In this document: in pieces, positions 1-12,611 of the stretch | Position numbering within the stretch: the stretch's first letter is position 1 | How the letters are laid out: each line of letters starts with the position of its first letter | DNA from: Acidobacteriota bacterium | GTDB lineage: Bacteria; Acidobacteriota; UBA4820; DSQY01 | Direction of reading: 5' to 3' | DNA length: 64,000 nt | NCBI GenBank assembly: GCA_049967655.1 | Contig: JBMFSH010000006.1 | Location: forward strand, 1-64,000 | Made by a program: the position numbers and the translations under genes | Notes under the pieces: generated by a model | The model's database searches: none | Told to the model about the DNA's origin: nothing | The model's input: the letters and a program-made list of their open reading frames with translations, nothing else

Positions 1-7
1 TGGGGGG

Positions 8-105
8 GGCAAGGCCATGGCCCTCCCCGTCCAGGAGACAACGCCTTTCCCCGGTGAACCCGAGCGGCAGCCGAAGGCACCCGTGTTTCCATCGCGGAAT
101 TTGGG
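8..105 (-). repeat. Dispersed intergenic repeat, copy A (~98 bp)
   Basis: Reverse complement matches 49809-49906 with 4 mismatches; its first 64 nt also match 18570-18633. Confidence 0.9.
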
Positions 106-142
106 GCACTGCTGCCTGGGGTGCGAGGGCGGCCGATGGGGG

Positions 143-763
143 CTATTTGATGACCTTCGCCTTGAGGGTGACCTTGCCCTCTTTGGTCTGGACCGAGAAG
201 GCTACGTCCGAGCCTTTGTACTTCTGGAGGATGGCCGCCTTCTGCTGGGCGAGATGCTGCTCGAAGGAGGCGAGATCCCACTTGGGCACTTCGCCCTCCC
301 TGAGCTTGGCGTTGACGAACTCCTCGAAGAGTGCCCGGTTGGGGTGTCCGCCTCCCGCGGGCGCCCGTTTCTCGGGGGCAGGCACCGGAGGCGGCGGCTC
401 GGGGCCGGAGGCCGGAGGGAGGGCATGGCCCCTTTCCAGCTCCTGCAACTCCCGCTTGGCTCGTCGGACAGACGCCAGCAAACGCGGGTCCTGGACCAGC
501 CCGTCCTCCCTGGCCCTCATCCACTTGTTCCACTGCTCGCACCGCATGACATAGCTGCTGTTGAAGGTGGAGAAGCGGAACTGCTGGGCGAGCCTGGGAA
601 GGCTGGCGTTTCCGTAGGTCCTCACCAGCGCGTCCAGCTCCTTCTGCTCCTTGCGGGGAGGGTCACGCCGCGCTCCGGCGAAGTAGAGGTCGTATTCGTG
701 CTTCAGGATGTTCAGCAGGGTCTCCATCCGCTGGATGTCCCGTTCGAAATCCATCTCGGGCAT
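143..763 (-). CDS. MXAN_5187 C-terminal domain-like protein
   Basis: N-terminal YDLYFAG..RDPP and QFRFSTF motifs; C-terminal VAFSVQTKEGKVTLKAK resembles this family. Confidence 0.7.
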   Translation of the reverse strand: MPEMDFERDIQRMETLLNILKHEYDLYFAGARRDPPRKEQKELDALVRTYGNASLPRLAQQFRFSTFNSSYVMRCEQWNKWMRAREDGLVQDPRLLASVRRAKRELQELERGHALPPASGPEPPPPVPAPEKRAPAGGGHPNRALFEEFVNAKLREGEVPKWDLASFEQHLAQQKAAILQKYKGSDVAFSVQTKEGKVTLKAKVIK

Positions 764-862
764 GTTCCGTCCCTCTCCCTGTAGGCACTTTAAGCCAGAG
801 GGCCCTCCTCTTCAAGGTTACCGATTATTTCCCCCACGTCATCGGCCTTTTCGGTGCCCGGC

Positions 863-892
863 TTGACACCCCAGCCGGCCAATTGCTAGATT
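863..892 (+). promoter_or_regulatory. Putative sigma70-type promoter of gdhA
   Basis: TTGACA, 18-nt spacer, TAGATT preceded by TGn. Confidence 0.5.
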
Positions 893-1107
893 CACCTTTC
901 TGGAGGGGGGGAATACCGAAGCCCTTATGTCGAGGAGGCTCGTTGGGGTCGGTGGGGGTGGACGAGGAGCGGGGCCACCTTTCGGATTCTGCTTCTGCGA
1001 CAGATCGGTCCCCTTGGCCTCGGCTGCTCGTGCGTGAAGAACACGTTCTGCTAGAACCGCTACGCCTGGTGCCCGGATCGTGGTGATCCGGACCGCAAAG
1101 GAGAACA

Positions 1108-2397
1108 GTGATGACGACCAAGCCCTTCAACCCGTTTGAGATGGCCCAGCAGCAATTCGACGCCGTGGCGGAGAAGCTGGGGCTGGACCAGGCCACTCGC
1201 GACCTGCTGCGCACACCGCTTCGTGAATACCACTTCAACATCCCGGTCCGCATGGACGACGGATCGTACAAGGTCTTTCACGGCTTCCGCATCCAGCACA
1301 ACGACGCCCGAGGCCCGTGCAAGGGCGGCATCCGCTTCCACCCCCACGAGACCGTGGACACGGTGCGCGCCCTGGCCACGTGGATGACCTGGAAGTGCGC
1401 CGTGGTGGACATCCCCCTGGGCGGCGGCAAGGGCGGCGTCATCTGCGACCCGCACAACCTCTCTGACCGCGAGCAAGAGGGCATCTGCCGCGGCTGGGTG
1501 CGCCAGGTGGCCCGCAACGTGGGCCCCACGCAGGACGTCCCCGCGCCAGATGTGATGACCAATGGGCAGCACATGCTGTGGATGATGGACGAACTCGAGA
1601 AGATCCGCGGCGAGAAGCTGCCCGGCTTCATCACGGGCAAGCCCGTTGGCATGGGCGGCTCCCTCGGACGCACCGAGGCCACCGGCCACGCCGTCATCTA
1701 CACCGTCCGCGAGGCCATGAAGGAGCTGGGTATCGACATCACTAAAGCCACGGCCTCCATCCAGGGCTCGGGCAACGTGGCCCAGTACGCTGTGGACCTC
1801 TTCACGCAGTACGGCGGCAAGGTCGTCGCCATCGCCTGCTGGGACAACAACGACAAGAAGGCCTACACCTATCGTTCCGAGGCGGGCATCCAATTTGACC
1901 AGCTCATGGCCGCCGTGGACAAATTCGGCACCATCAGCCCCGCCAAGGCCAAGGAGTACGGCTGGCAGCAACTGCCCGGCGATGCCTGGATCGAGCAGGA
2001 GGTGACCCTCCTCATCCCGGCCGCCCAGGAAGGCATGATCACCGGCGACAACGTGGGCAAGATCAAACCGTCCGTGAAGATCATCGCGGAGGGCGCCAAC
2101 GGCCCCACCACGGTGGATGCCGACAAGGTCCTCTTCGAGCGCGGCATCTTCGTGATTCCCGACTTCCTCTGCAACGCCGGCGGCGTGACCTGCTCCTACT
2201 TCGAGCAGGTGCAGTGCAACATGAATTACTACTGGGAAAAGGAGGAGGTCTTGCAGAAGCTCGACCAGAAGATGACGAGCGCCTTCAAGGCCGTCTCCAA
2301 GCTCCACAGGGACAAAAAGATCTACATGCGCGACGCGGCCTACATGATCGCCGTCTCGCGCGTGGCCGAGGCCTGCAAGGTGCGCGGCTGGGTGTAG
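1108..2397 (+). CDS. gdhA: Glutamate dehydrogenase (Glu/Leu/Phe/Val dehydrogenase family), catalytically intact
   Basis: GPCKGGIRF, MTWK, GGGKGG, PAPD, QGSGNVA, EGANGP, PDFLCNAGGV; strongly biased codons; start GTG 1108 or ATG 1111. Confidence 0.93.
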   Translation: MMTTKPFNPFEMAQQQFDAVAEKLGLDQATRDLLRTPLREYHFNIPVRMDDGSYKVFHGFRIQHNDARGPCKGGIRFHPHETVDTVRALATWMTWKCAVVDIPLGGGKGGVICDPHNLSDREQEGICRGWVRQVARNVGPTQDVPAPDVMTNGQHMLWMMDELEKIRGEKLPGFITGKPVGMGGSLGRTEATGHAVIYTVREAMKELGIDITKATASIQGSGNVAQYAVDLFTQYGGKVVAIACWDNNDKKAYTYRSEAGIQFDQLMAAVDKFGTISPAKAKEYGWQQLPGDAWIEQEVTLLIPAAQEGMITGDNVGKIKPSVKIIAEGANGPTTVDADKVLFERGIFVIPDFLCNAGGVTCSYFEQVQCNMNYYWEKEEVLQKLDQKMTSAFKAVSKLHRDKKIYMRDAAYMIAVSRVAEACKVRGWV

Positions 2398-2421
2398 ATT
2401 TCTGCGTCTTTTGCTCCTCTG

Positions 2422-2454
2422 AGGGGCCCGCCTTTGTCGGCGGGCCCCTTTTTT
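2422..2454 (+). terminator. Rho-independent terminator after gdhA
   Basis: aggggcccgcc-tttgtc-ggcgggcccct hairpin followed by a T run. Confidence 0.85.
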
Positions 2455-2536
2455 GCGCCCAGGCGCCCCGCCAGTTGCTGGCCCGGAGCACCGAGCTCCT
2501 GTATACTTCGGCCCATGGCAGAGGGGGAGGCGGTCC

Positions 2537-5293
2537 ATGACGGCAAAGAGCCGGGGCCAGGAGAGGCAGCTCCAGTGCCTGTTCCAGATAGCCGCCATCC
2601 TGGTGAACCCCGAATTCTCGATCCAGCAAGTCTTAGACCGGGTCATCAAGGCCCTGCCGCTGGGGCTTCGCCACCCGGAGGCCGGCCGGGTGAGGATCAC
2701 CCTGGGCGAACGGGTTTTCGAATCAGAAGGGTTTGAAGAGACCCCGTGGAAGCTGCGGGCGCACCTCGTGGTCCACGGGAAGCTTGCGGGCAAGCTGGAC
2801 GTCGTCTACCTGGAAAACCGCTCCCAATACGGGGAGAACCCCTTTCTTCTGGACGAGCGGAAGCTCGTGGAGATCACGGCGCAGAAGCTCGGCCCTGCCA
2901 TTGAAACGCGGGAGAAGGAGGGAGAACCCACCGGCTCTCCGGAAACGGCCTCCTCCACCGCCCCGGCCGACCACAAACCCGAGTGGCGAACGATTCTGGA
3001 CCTCATCCAGGAGACCGACAAGGCCCTCTACAAGCGCCTCGTCAGGAGGCTGATGAACCACTTGACCAAGCTGAACCTCCCCGCCATCCAGAAGATCATC
3101 ACCCGACTGGATCCGGCCGTCTACGCTGAAAGGGAACGCGATTCCTGGGGCTCCAACCAGCCGCTGCCCAAGCGGGACATAGCAGTCCTCGATACGGCCT
3201 TCGAGGAGGTCATCAGGGTCGCCTCCATCACCATCCAGGAGCCGGAGCTGGCCCGGCTGATCAAGCAGTGGATGAAGCAGGACAAACTCGGCTTCTTCGC
3301 CATGGCCATCGAAAGGCGGGATATTTCGCTCGTCGAGATCTCCGATATCGTGAACCGCTTCTGCAGGGACACCAAGGAGGAGGAGCACGCCCTGTCTCAC
3401 TCCGACGACATGAACGTGCGCGTGGCGCTGACCCGGCGCTTTCTCACCGACAGCCTCCCCTTCATCCGCGTCGCCAAGGAATACCTGACGGTGTACGATT
3501 TCGGCCGGATCCTGTCCAGGGTGGCAGGGCCCGGCCAGGGCAACGGGCGGCTGGGAGGCAAGGCGGCGGGGCTGATCCTAGCCGCGCACATCCTCGGCCG
3601 CGTCGGCAAGGACAATCCCCTGCTGTCCCGCTTCAAGGTGCCTCACACCTGGTACATCGCCTCGGACGGCATGTTCGACTTCGTCCACTACAACTCGCTC
3701 GAGGACCTTCAGAGCTTCAAGTTCTCCAGCATCAGCGAGGTCCGGCACAACTATCCGTACATTGAACAGGTGTTCAAGCACTCCTCCTTTTCCCTCGAGA
3801 TGCTCAACCAACTCAAGGTGGCCCTGGACGACCTGGGGGAGGGCCCTCTCATCGTCCGCTCCTCCAGCCTGCTGGAGGACAGCCTGGGCACGGCCTTTTC
3901 GGGAAAGTACCGCAGCCTCTTTCTGGCCAACACGGGCTCCAAGCAGGAGCGCCTGGAGGCCCTCACCGACGCCGTGGCCGAGGTGTACGCCTCGATCTTC
4001 GGGCCCGACCCCATTCAGTACCGCGCCGAGCGTGGCCTGCTGGACTTCATGGAGGAGATGGGGGTCATCATCCAGCGCGTCGTCGGGCGCAGGATAGGCA
4101 AGTACTTCTTCCCGGCCTTCGCCGGCGTGGCCTTCTCCACCAATGAATTCCGTTGGTCGCCAAGGATCAAGCGGGAGGACGGCATCCTCCGCATGGTCGC
4201 CGGGCTGGGCACCAGGGCCGTGGATCGGATTGGGGACGACTTCCCCGTCCTCGTGTCGCCGGGCCATCCCGATCTGAGGGTCAACGTGACGCCCGAGCAG
4301 GTCTTTCACTACGCGCAGCGGTACATCGACGTCATCAACCTGGAGACGGGGAGGTTCGAAACCGCGAGTATCGAGCGGATCTTCCAGGAGGTCGGGGAGG
4401 AGTTCCCTCTCCTTGAGCGCATCGTCTCCATCTACGACGGGAGCTCCCTGCGCAGACCCATGCCTGGCTTGTTGGATCCCCGCGGGAGCGATCTGGTGGT
4501 GACCTTCGCGGGACTCATCGAGAGCACCGATTTCGTCCCTCAGATGCGCGAGATCATGCGTACCCTCCAGGCCACCATCGGCATGCCCGTGGACCTGGAA
4601 TTCGCCCACGACGGGGAGTCGCTTCACCTCCTCCAGTGCCGGCCCCAGAGCAGGCTCGGCGACGAGGGCCCCGTCACGATCCCCCACTGGATTCCGGAAA
4701 AGCGCAAGCTCTTCTCGGCCAAGAAGTACGTGACCAACGGCCAGGTCGTCGGCGTCCGCTACATCGTTTACGTCGATCCCGAGGCCTATTCGAAGCTGCC
4801 GAGCCGGGACGACATGGTGCAGGTGGCCGACGCCATCAGCCGCCTCAACGGCATCCTCCCCCGTCGCTCCTTCATCCTCATGGGCCCCGGGCGCTGGGGA
4901 AGCCGGGGCGATATTACGCTGGGAGTGGGCGTCACCTACTCGGGCATCAACAACACGCAGATGCTGATCGAGATCGCCCGCCGCAAGGGAAGCTACGTTC
5001 CCGACCTCTCCTTCGGAACCCATTTTTTCCAGGACCTCGTCGAGGCTAAGATACGCTACTTGGCCCTCTTTCCAGACGAGGATGGGATCATCTTTAACGA
5101 GGGCTTCTTTCGCGAGGTCTCCAACATGCTTCCCGTCTTGCTGCCCGAATACGGCCACCTTCAGCACGTGATCAGGGTGATCGACGTCGAGCAGGCTTCC
5201 GGCGGGCTCGAACTCCAGGTGATGATGGACGGGATCAAGGAGCAGGCCCTGGGATTCCTGTCGGAGAAGAGCGCCCCGAATGTCTTTGCGTAG
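2537..5293 (+). CDS. PEP/pyruvate-binding domain (PPDK_N-like ATP-grasp) protein with N-terminal GAF-like domain
   Basis: LGGKAAGL, IVRSSSLLED, FSGKY, GLGTRAV, DLEFA, LLQCRP; C-terminal GPGRWGS and SFGTHFF; ATG 2537 follows GGAGG. Confidence 0.85.
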   Translation: MTAKSRGQERQLQCLFQIAAILVNPEFSIQQVLDRVIKALPLGLRHPEAGRVRITLGERVFESEGFEETPWKLRAHLVVHGKLAGKLDVVYLENRSQYGENPFLLDERKLVEITAQKLGPAIETREKEGEPTGSPETASSTAPADHKPEWRTILDLIQETDKALYKRLVRRLMNHLTKLNLPAIQKIITRLDPAVYAERERDSWGSNQPLPKRDIAVLDTAFEEVIRVASITIQEPELARLIKQWMKQDKLGFFAMAIERRDISLVEISDIVNRFCRDTKEEEHALSHSDDMNVRVALTRRFLTDSLPFIRVAKEYLTVYDFGRILSRVAGPGQGNGRLGGKAAGLILAAHILGRVGKDNPLLSRFKVPHTWYIASDGMFDFVHYNSLEDLQSFKFSSISEVRHNYPYIEQVFKHSSFSLEMLNQLKVALDDLGEGPLIVRSSSLLEDSLGTAFSGKYRSLFLANTGSKQERLEALTDAVAEVYASIFGPDPIQYRAERGLLDFMEEMGVIIQRVVGRRIGKYFFPAFAGVAFSTNEFRWSPRIKREDGILRMVAGLGTRAVDRIGDDFPVLVSPGHPDLRVNVTPEQVFHYAQRYIDVINLETGRFETASIERIFQEVGEEFPLLERIVSIYDGSSLRRPMPGLLDPRGSDLVVTFAGLIESTDFVPQMREIMRTLQATIGMPVDLEFAHDGESLHLLQCRPQSRLGDEGPVTIPHWIPEKRKLFSAKKYVTNGQVVGVRYIVYVDPEAYSKLPSRDDMVQVADAISRLNGILPRRSFILMGPGRWGSRGDITLGVGVTYSGINNTQMLIEIARRKGSYVPDLSFGTHFFQDLVEAKIRYLALFPDEDGIIFNEGFFREVSNMLPVLLPEYGHLQHVIRVIDVEQASGGLELQVMMDGIKEQALGFLSEKSAPNVFA

Positions 5294-5472
5294 GCAAAAT
5301 TCCCCACAGAGCTTGCACGGAGGAGCGGGGCTGACCATACTGAGCCCGTTTCGTCCGATTCTTCGGAGCACCGTCACCGTGATCGCGCAGGGTTGTGAGA
5401 GGCTGATCCACCCAGTGCGGCATTCTTGAGCCGCCGAATCGTTGGCCATTCCGGGTCGAGGCCGCGGATGAC

Positions 5473-6732
5473 TTGAACAGCGGAGGTTTGGCAGTGGACG
5501 TTCGAGACTGCTTCGAAAGGGCCGCCGATCTCGCGGGATTGTCCCCCGGCGTCCGGCGCCTGCTTGCCCTGCCCTGCGACGAGCTGACCCTCAACTTTCC
5601 CGTTAAGATGGACGACGAGTCGGTGGAGACCTTCCGTGGGTTTCGCGTGCACCACAACGACGCCCTCGGCCCCTACCTGGGAGGGCTCCGTTACCACCCC
5701 TCGGTGAGCCTCAAGGCCATGCGAACCCAGGCCGCCCAGCGCACCTGGCAGGCCGCCCTGGCGGGCCTGCCCTTTGGCGGCTCCATGGGGGGCATCCAAC
5801 TGGATCCCTCCCGTCACAGCCTATCGGAGCTGGAGCGGATCACGCGCCGCTTCGTGTTCGCCCTGGGCAACAACATCGGGCCGGACTACGACGTCCTCAC
5901 GACGGAGGTCAACACGAACAGCCAGATCATGAGCTGGGTCCTGGACACCTACTTTTCCACCGTGCCGCCCCAGGAGAGAAACCGCGCCTTCCCGGTGGTC
6001 ACCGGCAAGCCGCTGGAGGCGGGGGGGCTCCCGGGGCGAAACCGGGCGGTGGGGCTGGGCATGGCCATGCTCATCGAGCGCTGGGCGAGCGATCACGCCG
6101 TAGACCTTGCCGCCTCGACCTACACGCTCCAGGGATTCGGAACGGTAGGCTCCTCGGTGGCGCGGGTCCTCCAATCCAAGGGCGCCAGGTTGCTGGCCGT
6201 GGAGGACGTGACCGGAGCCGTATTCCATCCGGGCGGCATCGATGCGGAGGACCTGTTCACCTATTCCAGACGGCGCTTCGGTCTGCGGGGCTACCCGAGG
6301 GCGACCCCCCTCAGCCACGAGGCCTTCCTGCGCACTCCGGCCACGATCTTCATTCCGGCCGCCCTGGCCACGGGCTTCACGAGCGAGCTGCTAGGGCTCC
6401 TGGAGGTGCGCCTCGTGGCCGAGGGGGCTTGCATCCTGACCGAACCGGGAATGGACGACGTGCTCCGGCGGAAGGGGACGGACCTTCTGCCCGACGTGCT
6501 CTGCACCGCGGGAGGAGCTACCGCCAGCTACTTCGAGTGGCTCCAGAACAAGCGCGGCGAACGGTGGGAGCTCGAAGAGGTGGAAAGGCGCCTTCAGGAC
6601 ACGCTCTACCGCGCCTACGACCGGGTGGCGAGGGCCTCCCAGGAGTTCGGCGCCGATTGGAGAACCACCAGCGTGGCCCTCGCTCTGGGGGATCTGGAGG
6701 GGGTCTACAGGGATCGGGGATTCTTCCCCTGA
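5473..6732 (+). CDS. GDH-family paralog lacking catalytic lysines (probable pseudoenzyme)
   Basis: Full-length GDH similarity, but GPYLGG, TWQ and GGSMGG replace the Lys motifs; true start may be 5488 or 5494 after GGAGG. Confidence 0.85.
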   Translation: MNSGGLAVDVRDCFERAADLAGLSPGVRRLLALPCDELTLNFPVKMDDESVETFRGFRVHHNDALGPYLGGLRYHPSVSLKAMRTQAAQRTWQAALAGLPFGGSMGGIQLDPSRHSLSELERITRRFVFALGNNIGPDYDVLTTEVNTNSQIMSWVLDTYFSTVPPQERNRAFPVVTGKPLEAGGLPGRNRAVGLGMAMLIERWASDHAVDLAASTYTLQGFGTVGSSVARVLQSKGARLLAVEDVTGAVFHPGGIDAEDLFTYSRRRFGLRGYPRATPLSHEAFLRTPATIFIPAALATGFTSELLGLLEVRLVAEGACILTEPGMDDVLRRKGTDLLPDVLCTAGGATASYFEWLQNKRGERWELEEVERRLQDTLYRAYDRVARASQEFGADWRTTSVALALGDLEGVYRDRGFFP

Positions 6733-6745
6733 CGGGAGCCGTGCC

Positions 6746-7996
6746 ATGACGAGCTACGACGAAGCGCTCCGCCAGCTCAACCAAGCCGCCGAACGCATGG
6801 GCCTGGACCCGGACGTGCGCAAGATCCTTTCCCAGACCGCCAGCGAGATCACCGTGAACTTTCCCGTCAAGATGGACGACGGAGAGGTCCGCATGTTCAC
6901 CGGCCACCTGGCGCAGCACAACAACGTCCTCGGGCCCTTCGCAGGGGGGCTGCGCTACCAGGAGGCGGTGGACACGGACGACGTCAGGGCCCTGGCGATC
7001 CGGATGACCTGGAAACACGCCGTTCTCGGACTGCCCTTCGGCGGCGCCATGGGCGGTGTGGACGTGGACCCGCTGCGATGCTCTCCGGCCGAACTGGAGC
7101 GCGCCACCCGGCGCTTCACCTTCGGCCTGGGCGGCAATATCGGCCCCGAGTACGGCGTGCTCTGCCCCGAACTGGGCACCGACGGACAGATCATGGCCTG
7201 GATCCTGGATACCTACGCCTCCACCATGCCGCCCCACGAACGAAACCTCTGCCGCCACGTGGTCATGGGCAAGCCTGCGACCCTGGGAGGAAGCGCGGGG
7301 CGGGAGCAGGCGGCCGGCCAAGCCGTCGCGATCATGCTGGATGAGTGGGCGCGGAACGAACAGGTGGACCTGAGGCAGGCGACCTTTTTCGTCCAGGGCT
7401 TTGGAGCCACCAGCTCCTGGGCGGCCCGCCTCCTGGCCGAGCGCGGGGCGCGCCTCCTGGCCGTGGAGGATGCCAGCGGCGCCATCACCAACCCCGCCGG
7501 CATCGATCCCGGCGATCTGGACTCCTTTGCTCGCCAGCACGGGGGCGTCGGGGGCTATCCCCAAGCCTCCCCCACGGACCACGCCGGCTTCCTCTCCACA
7601 CGGGCGGACATCTTCATTCCCGCCTCACCGCAGAAGCCGGTCTCGATGGACTGCGCCTCCATGCTGAGGGTCCGGGTCGTGGCGGAGGGCGCCGACTCCC
7701 TCATCGACCGCGAGGCAGAGGCCCTGCTCCAGGAGAGGGGCATCCAGATCCTGCCGGACCTTCTCTGCCATTCGGGCGACACCATCGTCTACTATTACGA
7801 ATGGCTTCAAAACCGCAGAAGCGAAAGATGGGAGGCGGAGGAGGTCGGCTCAAAGATGCGCCGCCTCCTCCTATCGGTCTACGAAGAGGCCCGCGGCATC
7901 GCTTCCGAACTCCAGACCGACCTGCGCTCGGCCGCGCTCATAGCGGGTCTCCGCAGGATCGAAACGGCCTATCTCAAGCGGGGCATCTTCCCCTGA
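6746..7996 (+). CDS. Second GDH-family paralog lacking the catalytic lysine (probable pseudoenzyme)
   Basis: GPFAGG, GGAMGG, LCPE in place of PAPD, QGFGATS; C-terminal RGIFP. Confidence 0.85.
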   Translation: MTSYDEALRQLNQAAERMGLDPDVRKILSQTASEITVNFPVKMDDGEVRMFTGHLAQHNNVLGPFAGGLRYQEAVDTDDVRALAIRMTWKHAVLGLPFGGAMGGVDVDPLRCSPAELERATRRFTFGLGGNIGPEYGVLCPELGTDGQIMAWILDTYASTMPPHERNLCRHVVMGKPATLGGSAGREQAAGQAVAIMLDEWARNEQVDLRQATFFVQGFGATSSWAARLLAERGARLLAVEDASGAITNPAGIDPGDLDSFARQHGGVGGYPQASPTDHAGFLSTRADIFIPASPQKPVSMDCASMLRVRVVAEGADSLIDREAEALLQERGIQILPDLLCHSGDTIVYYYEWLQNRRSERWEAEEVGSKMRRLLLSVYEEARGIASELQTDLRSAALIAGLRRIETAYLKRGIFP

Positions 7997-8130
7997 GGCT
8001 GGCCCGTCGGCGGCAGGCGCCTTCCTCCGCTCCGCTCCGGAAGGCAGCCCCCTCAAGGGCGGGGCGGGGCCCCAGAGGGCCTTGCCCGTAGGAAGGAACC
8101 CTTAGCGCTCCACCCTCCACCCTCCCCACC

Positions 8131-8159
8131 GTTCCCATCCGGACCTTCCGGATGGGAAC
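8131..8159. other. Perfect 13-bp hairpin
   Basis: gttcccatccgga-cct-tccggatgggaac between the GDH paralogs and nrdJ. Confidence 0.6.
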
Positions 8160-8205
8160 TTGCTAGCGGGGCCTCCGAGCCTTTCTTCGAGGCTCTCCAG
8201 ACCCC

Positions 8206-8259
8206 TTGACACCCACTATATGTTGCGCTATATTAACCATGCTTAGCTAAATATGGTGG
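8206..8259 (+). promoter_or_regulatory. nrdJ promoter with tandem NrdR boxes
   Basis: TTGACA-17-TATATT; ccaCTATATGTTGcgc (8213-8228) and tagCTAAATATGGtgg (8244-8259) fit the NrdR consensus and are 31 bp apart. Confidence 0.85.
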
Positions 8260-8334
8260 TTCCATGGGCATAAGCCCTTTGGACACATGAACTTGGGATG
8301 CAGTGTCTCCACGAGAACAAGGGAGGTCAGTCGG

Positions 8335-11300
8335 ATGGACACGTACAAGGGTGGCGGACAGCCAGGTAGCACCGGCAACCGCAAGACCGCAGCCACGCCC
8401 CAGATCAGCACCTCGAAGGATCCTTCACCTCCGGACCATTCGCAGCCGCCTGAAGTCGATCTATCCCCGGAGGCTCTGGTTCCGTTTCGGCTGGATCGGC
8501 GGTTCACCTCTCCTGGCTGCGATCCGCTGGACGGCGCCGCCTACCAGCGACGCTCCTCCAAGATCATGAATACGGATGGGTCCACGGTGTTCGCCATGGA
8601 GAACGCCGAGGTCCCCGCGGACTGGAGCCAGCTGGCCACGGACATCCTGATCAGCAAGTACTTCCGAAAAGCCGGGGTGCCGGGCACGGGTCACGAAACC
8701 TCCATCCGCCAGGTGATCCGCCGTATCGCCCACACGATCAGGGTCGAGGGTGAGAAGTTCGGCGGCTACTTCATGGACAAGGAGGAGGCCGATGCCTTCG
8801 AGGCCGAGCTCTCTTACCTGCTCCTGACCCAGAGGGGGGCATTCAATTCTCCCGTCTGGTTCAATCTAGGGCTCTGGCACGAATACGGGATCGAGGGCTC
8901 GGGCGGCGCCTACTACTGGAATGCCGAGACCGGGCAGATCGAGGAGACCTCCAACGCCTATCAGCACCCCCAGTGCTCGGCGTGCTTCATCCAGAGCGTG
9001 GACGACGACCTGATGAGCATCTTCCAGCTGGCCAAGAACGAGGCCCGGCTGTTCAAGTACGGCTCCGGCACCGGCAGCAACTTTTCACGCATCCGCTCCC
9101 GGGAAGAGAGGCTCTCCGGCGGGGGCACCTCATCGGGCCTGATGAGCTTTCTGGAGGTCCTGGATCGCGCCGCCGGCGCCACCAAGTCCGGCGGAACCAC
9201 CCGTCGCGCCGCCAAGATGGTCTGCCTGGACATGGACCATCCCGAGGTGGAGGACTTCATCAACTGGAAGCGCCGGGAGGAGAGCAAGGCGAGGGTGCTG
9301 GCCGAGGCGGGAATCGACCTGGACGATGCGGTGCACACCGTCTCGGGCCAGAACGCCAACAACTCGTTGCGCGTCACCGACGCCTTCATGGAGGCCTACG
9401 AAAAGGACGGGGAGTGGACCACCACCTACCGGACCAGCGGAGAGCCCGCGCATACCCACCGGGCCCGGGATCTCATGCGCCAGATCGCGGTGGCCGCGTG
9501 GGAGTGCGGCGATCCGGGGCTGCAATTCGACAGCACCATCAACCGTTGGCACACCTGCAAGGCCACCGACCGCATCCACGCCTCCAACCCCTGCTCCGAG
9601 TACATGTTCCTGGACGACTCGGCCTGCAACCTCGCCAGTCTGAACCTCATGAAATTCCTGAATGAAGAGGGCGAGTTCGACGTGGAGGGATACAAGCACG
9701 CCGTGGGCGTCTTCATCATCGCCCAGGAGATTCTGGTCGACCTCTCCTCCTACCCCACCGAGACCATCGCCAAGAACAGCCACGACTTCCGGCCCCTAGG
9801 CCTCGGCTACGCCAATCTTGGCACCCTCCTGATGGTCCTGGGCATCCCCTACGACAGTCCCAAGGCCTTCGCGTGGTGCGGTGCGCTCACCAGCCTCATG
9901 ACCGGCCAGGCCTACCTGGTCTCTTCCCTGCTGGCCAAGCGCAAGGGCCCCTTCTCCGGCTACGCCAAGAACCGGGAGTCCATGCTGGACGTCATCAAGA
10001 TGCACCGGGACGCCAGCCACAAGGTCGAGCTGGATTACCTCCCGCAGAGCCTCGGCCTCGCCAGCCGGCAGGTGTGGGACGACGCCCTGGTCTTCGGCCG
10101 CCAGTTCGGCTTCCGCAACGCCCAGGCCACGGTGCTGGCCCCCACGGGAACCATAGGCCTGCTCATGGATTGCGATACCACCGGCATCGAACCCGACTTC
10201 TCCCAGGTCAAGTTCAAGAAGCTGGCGGGCGGGGGCTACTTCAAGATCGTGAACCAGTCGGTGGAGCGCGCCCTGCACGCTCTTGGCTATCCCCCCGCCC
10301 AGATCCAGGAGATGCTGCGGTATCTGGTGGGCACGGGGCAGCTGGCTGGCACGCCCCACATCCACCCGGCCAGCCTGATGGCCAAGGGATTCACGGAGGA
10401 GGAGGTGGCTCGCGTGGAAAGCCAGCTCGCGCGGGTGGTGGACCTTCCCCAGGCCTTCTCCGCCTTCGTCTTGGGCGACGACTGCATCCGGAGGCTGGGC
10501 TTCACTCCGGAGGAGGCCGCCAAACCCGGCTTCAATGTGCTCGCCGCCCTCGGTTTCAGCGACGCCCAGATCGAGGAGGCCTCTGCCGTGGCCTGCGGCC
10601 ACATGACGCTGGAAGGTGCGCCCTACCTGAAGGAGGAGCACCTGCCCGTGTTCGACTGCGCCAACCGCTGCGGAAGGTACGGGAAGCGGTTCATTGCCCC
10701 CCTCGGCCACGTGAAGATGATGGCGGCGGCCCAGCCCTTTCTGTCCGGTGCCATCAGCAAGACCGTCAACCTTCCCTCCTCCATCCTGCCGGAGGAGATC
10801 GAGCGCATCTACGTGGAGGGCTGGAAGCGCGGCCTCAAGGCCCTCGCCGTCTACCGGGACGGCTCCAAGGTCACCCAGCCCCTTTCGGACGCCTCCACCC
10901 AGAAGGCCGCCAAGAGGGAGGCGGCCTCGGCCCCACCCCCCGACGAACAGCTCTGGCGCACGCCGCTTCAGCGCCGCAGGCTACCGAAAAAGCGCGGCGG
11001 CTTCACCCAGGAGGCGCGCGTAGGCGGACAGAAGGTCTACCTGCGGACGGGCGAGTACGCCGACGGTCGCCTGGGCGAGGTCTTCATCGACATGCACAAG
11101 GAGGGGGCAGCCTTCCGCTCCCTGATGAACTGCTTCGCCATCGCCATTTCGCTCGGCCTCCAGTACGGCGTTCCCCTGGAGGAGTATGTGGACTGCTTCA
11201 CCTTCACGCGCTTCGAGCCCCAGGGGCCCGTCACGGACCATCCCAACATCAAATATGCCACCTCGGTCATCGACTACATCTTCCGAGTTCTGGGCATGGA

Positions 11301-11592
11301 GTACCTGGGAAGGACCGATTTCGTGCAGGTGAAGCCGGACGAGCTGGAGAAGGCCCAGGCCGAGAAGACGCTGACCTCGCCCACGGCGAGCGCCACCGAG
11401 GTGGCCGCCGCCGAGAAGACCCTCTCCTCTCAGGTTCCGGTCTACAAGGCCGTCGGGGGAAACCCGCTTTCCAGCCACCTCTCGACCATGATGGGCGATG
11501 CCCCGTTCTGCAACATCTGCGGCCACATCACGGTGCGGAACGGCTCCTGTTACAAATGCCTGAACTGCGGCAACAGCCTCGGTTGCAGCTAG
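8335..11592 (+). CDS. nrdJ: Adenosylcobalamin-dependent (class II) ribonucleotide reductase
   Basis: [42 protein letters not shown]-terminal TSCPD-like domain and CxxC-CxxC zinc ribbon; ATG after GGGAGG. Confidence 0.96.
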
Positions 11593-11614
11593 CCATCCCG
11601 GTGGAAGGTCACGC

Positions 11615-11650
11615 GGAAGGGGGCGCGGCTCACGCGCCCCCTTTCCTTTT
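11615..11650 (+). terminator. Terminator after nrdJ
   Basis: ggaagggggcgcg / cgcgccccctttcc stem followed by tttt. Confidence 0.75.
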
Positions 11651-11705
11651 CGGGCGGCGCCCTCCCCGCACCGGCGAACGACCGGGTGCCGCACCGTGGG
11701 AACCG

Positions 11706-12611
11706 TCAGCCCGGAAGCGGCTCCTCGACCTCCGGGCGGCGCAAGGTCAACAAGGTCACGCTGATCACGACCACGGCCGCACCCAGAGCCTGAACGGGAT
11801 AGAGCCGCTCCCCGAGCAACAGCACCGCCAGCCCCGTGGCCACCACCGGAATCACGTTGGTGAAGGCAGCCACGATGGAGGCCTTCAGGTGGGCCAGCGA
11901 AATGTTCAGGAGCAGATACGCAAGAAAGGAGCAACCGATCCCGAGGTAAAGCACGGCCAGCCAGGCCCTGGGGCCGGCCTGCGGCATCCCCTGCGTCGAG
12001 AAATCCCAGAGGGCGAACGGCAGGTACATGGTGGCCGCATATAGGGCCTGCAACCGCGTGATGGCCACGGCGTTGTAGCGGGAAAGCAGGCGGCGGGCCA
12101 GAACCGTGTAGACCGAAGCGGCGAAGGCCGCAGCCAGGATGAAACCGTTGCCCACCAGGCTCCCGCCGAAGGCCTTTCTGAGCCCTCCCGCGGTGACCAG
12201 GAGGAATATGCCCCCAAGGGAGAGCAAGATGAGCAGCACCTCCGTGGCGACGATCCTGGCCTTCAGCCAGAGGACTTCAAGAAGCAGGACGTAGATGGGA
12301 ATCGTGCAGATGAGGATGGCCGCCGTCGAGGCGAGCGTGCGCTGGATGCCCATGGCCTCGAGATAGAAATAGACTCCCGGCTCGAACAGGGCGAGGACCA
12401 GGATCTTCCAATAGCCCGCCCGATCCACGGGACTTGCCTTCAGCCAGGGAGAGAAGACGAAAAAGACCGCCGCGCCGAGTAAAAAACGCAGGAATATTAG
12501 CTCTGAAGGGGTGAAGGCGGAAAGCGCGATCTTGGTGCCCACGAAGGAGGCGCCGAAGAGAAGGGACATGCCCACGAGGGCGGCCAGCGCCCCGGCCTTG
12601 GCGCCTCTCAT
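11706..12611 (-). CDS. DMT/EamA family transporter
   Basis: About 10 hydrophobic segments in two EamA-like repeats, LLGE motif; start overlaps the queC stop (ATGA). Confidence 0.88.
   Translation of the reverse strand: MRGAKAGALAALVGMSLLFGASFVGTKIALSAFTPSELIFLRFLLGAAVFFVFSPWLKASPVDRAGYWKILVLALFEPGVYFYLEAMGIQRTLASTAAILICTIPIYVLLLEVLWLKARIVATEVLLILLSLGGIFLLVTAGGLRKAFGGSLVGNGFILAAAFAASVYTVLARRLLSRYNAVAITRLQALYAATMYLPFALWDFSTQGMPQAGPRAWLAVLYLGIGCSFLAYLLLNISLAHLKASIVAAFTNVIPVVATGLAVLLLGERLYPVQALGAAVVVISVTLLTLRRPEVEEPLPG

Follow-up and report, generated by a model that had tools for sequence, protein, structure and literature searches.

A candidate glutamate dehydrogenase control cluster in an Acidobacteriota bacterium: an intact enzyme, a GAF/ATP-grasp protein and two paralogs without catalytic residues

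Glutamate dehydrogenase (GDH) stands at the junction of carbon and nitrogen metabolism. A hetero-oligomeric GDH was reportedly described in Thermus by Tomita et al. in 2010, 2011 and 2019 (PDB 3AOE). Two reports present the GDH of Thermus thermophilus as composed of an inactive regulatory subunit, GdhA, a catalytic subunit, GdhB, and an additional inactive APRT homolog, which makes it one of the few cases of post-translational GDH control known in bacteria (PMC9570180; bioRxiv 10.1101/2025.10.31.685773). The second report also presents ADLP, a dead alanine-dehydrogenase-like protein of Thermus that acts as an NAD+ sensor and regulates a CoA transferase (bioRxiv 10.1101/2025.10.31.685773). On the side of the phosphotransfer proteins, VadK (Rv1127c) of Mycobacterium tuberculosis is described as a regulatory kinase derived from PPDK, which phosphorylates itself and binds to enzymes of a single metabolic pathway (EMBO Rep 2026, PMC13400623). 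Here we analyze the first 64,000 nucleotides (nt) of contig JBMFSH010000006.1 of an Acidobacteriota bacterium (the window, in which position 1 is the first letter of the stretch), where a cluster spanning 1108..7996 encodes a GDH, a GAF/ATP-grasp protein of the PPDK_N type and two GDH paralogs that have lost catalytic residues. A literature search outside subscription journals yielded no paper on a gdh associated with a PPDK_N/GAF protein or on dead GDHs in tandem.

We read this locus as a GDH control cluster, in which GDH1 would be the enzyme, the ATP-grasp protein its controller, and GDH2d and GDH3d a non-catalytic hetero-oligomer with a regulatory or sensor role, and on this reading as a whole our confidence is evenly balanced. 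Every physical contact and regulatory effect in such a cluster is what we infer from the gene content, the loss of catalytic residues, the selection, the ancestry and the synteny that were observed. The four genes are the following:

1111..2397, + strand: gdh1, intact glutamate dehydrogenase of the 50-kDa class (open reading frame listed from GTG 1108)
2537..5293, + strand: GAF/ATP-grasp (PPDK_N) gene, 918 residues (open reading frame listed from TTG 2453)
5494..6732, + strand: GDH2d, pseudo-GDH (open reading frame listed from TTG 5473)
6746..7996, + strand: GDH3d, pseudo-GDH, starting 13 nt after the GDH2d stop

A preliminary description of this DNA had claimed four co-oriented genes, namely one intact GDH, one sensor-dikinase-like protein and two dead GDH paralogs, and all of this was borne out. 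The list of open reading frames gives 1108-2397, 2453-5293, 5473-6732 and 6746-7996, all on the + strand, and in Pfam the domains ELFV_dehydrog_N (PF02812) and ELFV_dehydrog (PF00208) match at full length and far above their cut-offs in gene 1 (231 and 182 bits), gene 3 (149 and 147) and gene 4 (156 and 147); in NCBIfam the three proteins score under every equivalog cut-off. Residues are discussed at positions K89, K113, K125 and D165 of the Clostridium symbiosum numbering, K125 being the catalytic lysine, located in the motif GG(G/A/S)KGG, and K89 and K113 the substrate lysines. GDH1 keeps the motifs GPCKGG, TWKCAV, GGGKGG and DVPAPD, in such a way that its signature K/K/K/D/S is intact and all catalytic and substrate residues are kept, as expected of an active-type GDH; its best solved relative is 1euz_A (E 8e-126, aligned over residues 7-429). 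By contrast, alignment of GDH2d with chain 3aoe_A revealed the changes K to L, K to Q, K to M and D to E (motifs GPYLGG, TWQAAL, GGSMGG and DVLTTE), and GDH3d, with the motifs GPFAGG, TWKHAV, GGAMGG and GVLCPE, has two of the three lysines and the Asp changed. Thus, of the three proteins only GDH1 carries the three lysines and the Asp taken as the mark of catalytic competence (KKKD, against L/Q/M/E in GDH2d and A/K/M/E in GDH3d). As the whole genome (3.14 Mb, 99.3% complete) contains these three ELFV genes only, GDH1 is its sole candidate for a catalytic GDH, and would be the enzyme of this organism.

Despite the loss of these residues, the two paralogs are kept. Within the genus (four genomes), the ratio of non-synonymous to synonymous substitution rates (dN/dS) amounted to 0.02-0.04 in gdh1 and 0.07-0.09 in the ATP-grasp gene; GDH2d gave 0.07-0.08 and GDH3d 0.14-0.16, with dS between 0.08 and 0.29 over the four genes and between 0.12 and 0.29 for GDH2d and GDH3d. 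Purifying selection thus acts on all four genes, the dead ones included, which means that the latter are functional. The reading of GDH2d and GDH3d as decaying pseudogenes, for which the lost catalytic residues speak, together with an in-frame TAA in the second gene of the corresponding pair in a related genome (G019), is scarcely credible and was rejected on these dN/dS values: both frames are intact in the four genomes of the genus, and relatives at 50-64% identity are conserved in other lineages. The interrupted gene itself (L129; G019:C27:11848-13095) contains a single in-frame TAA, which may represent decay in that lineage or an assembly error in a genome that is 73% complete.

The two proteins could also be enzymes with a new, lysine-independent chemistry, given that the full-length fold and the glycine-rich loops are kept and that GDH2d retains the Rossmann motif GFGTVGS. 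We consider this very improbable, as all three lysines are replaced (L/Q/M) in GDH2d and the cofactor motifs of GDH3d are degenerate; furthermore, we know of no ELFV-family enzyme that works without the catalytic lysine. In GDH2d, EGAC replaces EGAN, while in GDH3d the dinucleotide motif reads GFGATSS and HSGDT replaces NAGGV. The GDH3d-type proteins are in general more degenerate than those of the GDH2d type, with NVGT or HSGD instead of NAGG. On the other hand, the 12 sequences of the GDH2d dead clade share more than 100 invariant columns, including FGG..GG, ELE.ITRR, VTGKP.EAGG and QG.G.VG, and the dead proteins retain the oligomer core motifs as well as the TRRF and LDTY motifs, which fall where Thermus has its leucine site. 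Since catalysis is lost, selection is kept and these motifs are retained, a role as regulatory or sensor subunits is the one that we favor for the pair.

The comparison with Thermus supports this role in part. As in GdhA/GdhB, an inactive GDH paralog is encoded together with the enzyme; among solved chains GDH2d is closest to 3aoe_A (E 2.8e-86); and the TRRF/Y motif and an acidic residue at the Thermus leucine site are present in the dead proteins, with the correspondence to the published R135/D166 counted by hand on the 3aoe_A alignment. The analogy with an inactive regulatory GdhA, already drawn in the preliminary description, is backed by the two Thermus reports (PMC9570180; bioRxiv 10.1101/2025.10.31.685773). 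Unlike Thermus, the dead paralogs are here two, encoded in tandem and sharing 46% identity, and the genome has no catalytic paralog of the same clade, as is found in the pairs of metagenome loci L210, L213 and L214. Between the only catalytic GDH and the dead proteins the identity is 30-32% (30-31% in the case of GDH3d), and another gene stands between them. The dead clade is a separate lineage: 3aoe_E, the chain present four times in the Thermus entry, has a lower score than 3aoe_A (228 versus 293 bits). Compared with ADLP, the pair likewise represents an amino-acid dehydrogenase paralog without catalysis, for which we propose the role of regulatory subunit that ADLP has, but the enzyme family and the target are different, and retention of the NAD site is doubtful in GDH3d and partial in GDH2d.

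The second gene encodes the protein that would control the enzyme. Pfam detected PPDK_N at residues 366-739 (163 bits), and NCBIfam gave weak matches over the N-terminal ATP-grasp part only, to phosphoenolpyruvate (PEP) synthase, PigC and rifampin phosphotransferase (Rph), with at most 53 bits against cut-offs of at least 500. Its structure was predicted from a 96-sequence alignment, with a predicted local distance difference test (pLDDT) score of 84.9 and a predicted template-modelling score (pTM) of 0.76; an earlier model from 21 sequences was discarded (pLDDT 55.8). In the model, compared with solved structures by VIA-align, residues 1-133 form a GAF fold (Z 10-13, root-mean-square deviation (rmsd) 2.4-3.1 against many GAF structures, including PtsP and NifA), joined by a helical linker to the ATP-grasp domain. 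Pfam returned no GAF match on the window protein and weak GAF matches on its homolog in L083. The ATP-grasp domain (approximately 297-709) resembles rifampin phosphotransferase (Foldseek E 1.7e-14; with 5hv1_A, Z 25.3 and an rmsd of 3.1 across 297 residues), and HpeI 9goj_A is a further solved fold relative (Z 18.6). The C-terminal domain (710-918) has the motifs GPGRWGSRG and SxGTHFFQD, invariant among the 96 sequences, with the invariant histidine at H829 of 918, and had no match of its own in the VIA-align search run on the whole 918-residue model. The claim that this is an ATP-grasp sensor protein is therefore borne out by the PPDK_N match and by the GAF fold of the predicted structure.

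Rifampin phosphotransferase, PEP synthase and pyruvate phosphate dikinase share with this protein the PPDK_N ATP-grasp domain. Unlike in those dikinases, a GAF domain and the 210-residue C-terminal domain with its invariant histidine motif stand in the place of the swivel domain and the PEP/pyruvate barrel, neither of which was found by Pfam: there was no match to the phosphohistidine swivel domain (PF00391, PEP-utilizers) at E <= 0.01, nor to a PEP/pyruvate-binding or other substrate domain on the 918 residues. By analogy, the ATP-grasp protein may work on GDH as VadK does on its enzymes, although its domain make-up is a different one: it has a GAF sensor and a C-terminal domain specific to its family, and lacks a recognised swivel domain.

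The family of this protein is large, with 2561 matches among the candidates scored and at least 586 relatives confirmed among the 600 pattern-matched stretches listed from the species-level genome collection. Its identity is 58-63% to proteins sourced as Holophaga, Aminicenantes, Riflebacteria and Deltaproteobacteria, and 43-62% across phyla, a tight and very wide conservation. Long forms in other phyla carry a weak NTP_transf_2 domain at the C-terminus (L083), and the window protein ends before that domain. In the relative G008, a 998-residue paralog (L045:6718-9714, - strand) has ahead of PPDK_N a weak response-regulator receiver match that replaces the GAF, a swap suggesting that one enzyme core can receive its input from different sensors. 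The genome of the window encodes three more full-size PPDK_N proteins among histidine kinase genes, two in tandem on contig C22 (30431-41815) and one on C59 (522-7593), which may be another sensor-linked dikinase-like set unrelated to gdh.

The association of the ATP-grasp gene with gdh extends far beyond this organism. The PPDK_N protein was found in 29 of 41 related genomes, including 23 of the 24 other genomes of the family, and in 14 of 20 loci fetched from relatives a GDH1-type gene lies upstream on the same strand, with another PPDK_N paralog in between in two of the 14. The remaining six comprise one with the end of a GDH at the contig start, four without room, and one (L040) with room but no GDH. 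In the species-level collection (80 loci in total, some of them the same contigs as the 20 fetched loci, and with relatives that are not independent), a co-oriented GDH was located at most 3 kb upstream of the PPDK_N gene in 49 of the 60 loci with room, which agrees with the statement in the preliminary description that such proteins often neighbour gdh. A shorter PPDK_N paralog is placed between both genes in 31 of the 80 loci. This distribution indicates that the pairing of GDH with the GAF/ATP-grasp protein is old and kept across many phyla.

The signature K/K/K/D/S is complete in 46 of the 52 GDHs found upstream and partial in two, while four have lost a lysine. GDH1-type proteins encoded directly before PPDK_N genes show W/K/M at L065:6578-7885 and L066:6663-7961, K125 changed to N at L067:3134-4705, and K125 changed to S at L112:6835-8133. 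Another GDH, E. coli-like and active, is encoded nearby at L065, L066 and L112, and none was seen in the 9.8 kb examined at L067. In the tree, L065 and L066 are sisters and L067 and L112 are grouped weakly, which implies at least two or three further lysine losses apart from the dead clade of the window.

These partners bear on what the ATP-grasp protein does. Instead of regulating, it could work in metabolism as a dikinase or ligase of small molecules, comparable to rifampin phosphotransferase, PigC or phenylphosphate synthase, and act on a substrate or product linked to the GDH reaction, which GDH-fold proteins, dead or alive, would deliver. The closest solved folds are indeed small-molecule phosphotransferases, the weak NCBIfam matches point to the N-terminal parts of such enzymes, and the conservation across phyla fits as well. 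However, Pfam recognised no swivel or substrate domain, an N-terminal GAF and a nucleotidyltransferase tail (the latter in other phyla) are typical of signalling enzymes, and the lysine-less GDH partners of L065, L066, L067 and L112 still keep the module, so we regard a metabolic role as rather improbable. A bolder proposal, which we offer as a long shot, takes the GDH fold as a signalling platform: a GAF-gated ATP-grasp enzyme would covalently modify GDH-fold proteins, by phosphoryl transfer or, in the long forms, nucleotidyl transfer, in a cascade like that of GlnE and glutamine synthetase, with the pseudo-GDH hetero-hexamer as a dedicated decoy or sensor substrate, which would determine how far the single catalytic GDH is modified and, through this, how active it is. 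This would explain the repeated rise of lysine-less GDHs beside PPDK_N genes.

The ancestry of the dead pair was also studied. The best 120 relatives of GDH2d comprise 109 ordinary GDHs (53-57% identity) and 11 lysine-less proteins with L/M-Q-M/V signatures. In a careful tree, the lysine-less proteins of the GDH2d/GDH3d lineage fall on one side of a branch with an ultrafast bootstrap (UFBoot) support of 93 and a Shimodaira-Hasegawa-like approximate likelihood ratio test (SH-aLRT) support of 95; a single origin of this clade appears in 93% of 200 bootstrap trees, and quick trees gave SH-aLRT values of 98 and 95 for the branch. It is nested inside a clade of active GDHs that resemble Thermus GdhB, with the GDH2d and GDH3d types as separate subclades and GDH1 in a different clade (support 100/100). 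The lysine-less subunit of this lineage thus probably arose once. Within the 150 nearest representatives of 50%-identity clusters, 114 have K/K/K/D/S and 22 lack the catalytic lysine, from which pseudo-GDHs are probably common, widespread and overlooked or understudied.

Gene order adds to this picture. An orthologous GAF-GAF histidine kinase and sigma-54 response regulator (Pfam; 45-66% identity) are found directly upstream of the members of the lineage at several stages: they precede active parent-clade GDHs (L152, L154, L155, L162 and L165; in L128 and L134 only the regulator is seen, where the contig starts), the tandems of an active and a dead gene in L210 and L214, and dead genes, both in tandem (L029, which is from G019, and L151/L153, of the G008 type) and single (L185). 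A history is hence traceable that would lead from a GDH operon driven by a two-component, sigma-54 system, through an active-plus-dead stage, to a dead-plus-dead pair. When the G008 kinase was used as query on the window genome, its GAF part matched only the ATP-grasp protein, and orthologs of the kinase and regulator were not found. Between the GAF of the ATP-grasp protein and those of the kinase in the G008 cluster, the identity is 29-36%, which suggests that they share one ligand.

In contrast to the pairing of GDH and PPDK_N, the dead pair is rare. Among 401 genomes sampled from the phylum, 17 had a match at E <= 1e-110 and seven contain the tandem dead pair (G000-G003, G008, G016 and G019), all of them from the family of the window; the matches in the other ten are K/K/K/D/S enzymes, a count (and the only one) that rests in part on an unpublished genome, G170. 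The pair lies directly behind the PPDK_N gene in this genus only (G000-G003 and the metagenome contig L148). In G008 and G019, from two sister genera, it belongs to the same wider cluster, behind its own histidine kinase and sigma-54 regulator, the order of the G008 island being gdh1, a receiver-domain PPDK_N gene (opposite strand), a GAF PPDK_N gene, an E. coli-like GDH, kinase, regulator and dead pair; in G016 a different contig carries it. The GDH/PPDK_N pair without a tandem dead pair at the locus examined was seen in no fewer than 15 of the family's 24 other genomes, in 12 of these through the fetched loci. A set of 80 metagenome loci yielded six dead-dead tandems (L148, L149, L150, L151, L153 and L172), one dead gene at a contig end (L185), three active-plus-dead tandems (L210, L213 and L214) and four single genes with K125 changed to M (L201, L208, L216 and L219). 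The four-part arrangement of the preliminary description is therefore not a conserved unit. What the gene orders indicate is that two modules, each with its own origin, have come to lie side by side at the level of this genus.

The transcription signals also point to separate units. The following elements were located around the four genes:

863..892, + strand: promoter-like TTGACA-18-TAGATT with TG before the -10, ahead of gdh1 (10/12 consensus matches only)
2421..2454, + strand: intrinsic terminator after gdh1, from folding (12-pair stem, 6-nt loop, U6)
2500..2507, + strand: extended -10-like element TGTATACT, 30 nt before the ATG of the PPDK_N gene, read by eye
5313..5341, + strand: promoter-like TTGCAC-17-CATACT, directly after the PPDK_N stop codon
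8131..8159, + strand: inverted repeat of 12 perfect pairs, GTTCCCATCCGG ... CCGGATGGGAAC, downstream of GDH3d and with no clear T-run, read by eye

The terminator, already proposed for the 3' side of the intact gene, was corroborated by folding: its stem (2421-2432/2439-2450) and U6 run (2449-2454) gave -38.8 kcal/mol (z = -5.1), and none of 200 shuffled sequences was as stable. A consensus terminator scan reported no site on the + strand in 700-8400, missing this textbook GC-rich 12-pair stem with U6, so the negatives of that scan should be read with care. The start of gdh1 was corrected to ATG 1111, located 7 nt after GGAG, and that of the PPDK_N gene to ATG 2537, behind GGGGGAGG, because TTG 2453 falls in the U-run of the terminator and homologs have around 915-918 residues. 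GDH2d most likely starts at GTG 5494 (TTG in relatives), behind the ribosome-binding site GGAGG, in line with the 412 residues of the homolog P0125. The octamer TGTATACT occurs also before the dead pair of G008 (L045), and the columns of TTGCAC-17-CATACT are invariant in five of five genus-level sequences, with the rest of the spacer variable. No sigma-54 promoter of the form TGGCAC-N5-TTGC was matched by eye in 5294-5493 or in the G008 spacer, in what was an informal inspection, and an Rfam search of 1-12000 returned nothing near any gathering score. Altogether, gdh1, the ATP-grasp gene and the dead pair look like three transcription units, each with its own putative promoter, and not like a single operon; the inverted repeat at 8131..8159 is a possible end of the last one.

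This layout and distribution raise the alternative that GDH2d and GDH3d form a non-catalytic hexamer on their own, with a target other than GDH1 or the ATP-grasp protein, for example as a trigger-enzyme relic that binds a transcription regulator (ancestrally the sigma-54 activator), its place behind the ATP-grasp gene being a functionally meaningless rearrangement. RocG-GltC in Bacillus is a precedent for a trigger enzyme of this kind. The ancestral order of kinase, sigma-54 regulator and GDH fits it, as do the own promoter-like site of the pair, the lack of a translational link to the upstream gene, the separate contig in G016 and the direct adjacency in one genus only. Yet in G008 and G019 the pair is still in a cluster with GDH1, two PPDK_N proteins and a third GDH, and in the window genome, where a query with the G008 kinase brought up no orthologs of the kinase and regulator, the supposed target would be missing while the pair is still under selection. 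We consider a stand-alone hexamer fairly unlikely.

In the control cluster that we favor, the GAF domain of the ATP-grasp protein would sense a small metabolite, and its ATP-grasp core would use ATP in a dikinase-like reaction to modify or regulate GDH1. The dead pair would descend from a lineage driven by a GAF histidine kinase and a sigma-54 activator, a two-component system presumably gone here, and would now be expressed from its own sigma-70-like promoter behind the ATP-grasp gene; the GDH2d/GDH3d hetero-oligomer would regulate GDH1 either directly or through the ATP-grasp protein. Several observations weigh against this proposal. GDH1 is only 30-32% identical to its dead paralogs and belongs to another clade, so mixed hexamers are not assured, and the active-plus-dead tandems that were seen combine members of one clade. 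The pair is present in only 7 of 401 genomes of the phylum and the GDH/PPDK_N pair is common, which means that the latter module works without it; a single genus has the dead pair directly next to the ATP-grasp gene, and at L150 the 4.8 kb downstream of the dead pair contain no PPDK_N gene and no other GDH. The partly degenerate dinucleotide-site motifs make NAD(H) sensing by GDH2d and GDH3d doubtful, and the alignment behind the tree kept the catalytic columns (4 of 424) and has three dead rows with very long branches. The regulatory interpretation of the preliminary description is reasonable; it stands with respect to the dead GDHs, the sensor, the terminator, the gdh neighbourhood and the Thermus analogy, and falls with respect to the conservation of the four parts as a unit.

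Regarding the genes around the cluster, a + strand open reading frame at 17-784 (255 residues), upstream of gdh1, has no Pfam or NCBIfam match. Downstream, 8206-11592 encodes a class II (B12-dependent) ribonucleotide reductase with a TSCPD domain, preceded by a promoter-like TTGACA-17-TATATT (11/12), and around this site there are CTATAT repeats that we take to resemble NrdR boxes.

The cluster joins two uncharacterised layers, an ATP-grasp enzyme fused to a sensor, whose tie to gdh extends over hundreds of genomes from many phyla, and a selected pair of pseudo-GDHs with a traceable history. Because its genome has one catalytic GDH and no other ELFV genes, this organism would provide a simple system for studying the effects of pseudo-GDHs and of the ATP-grasp protein on GDH.

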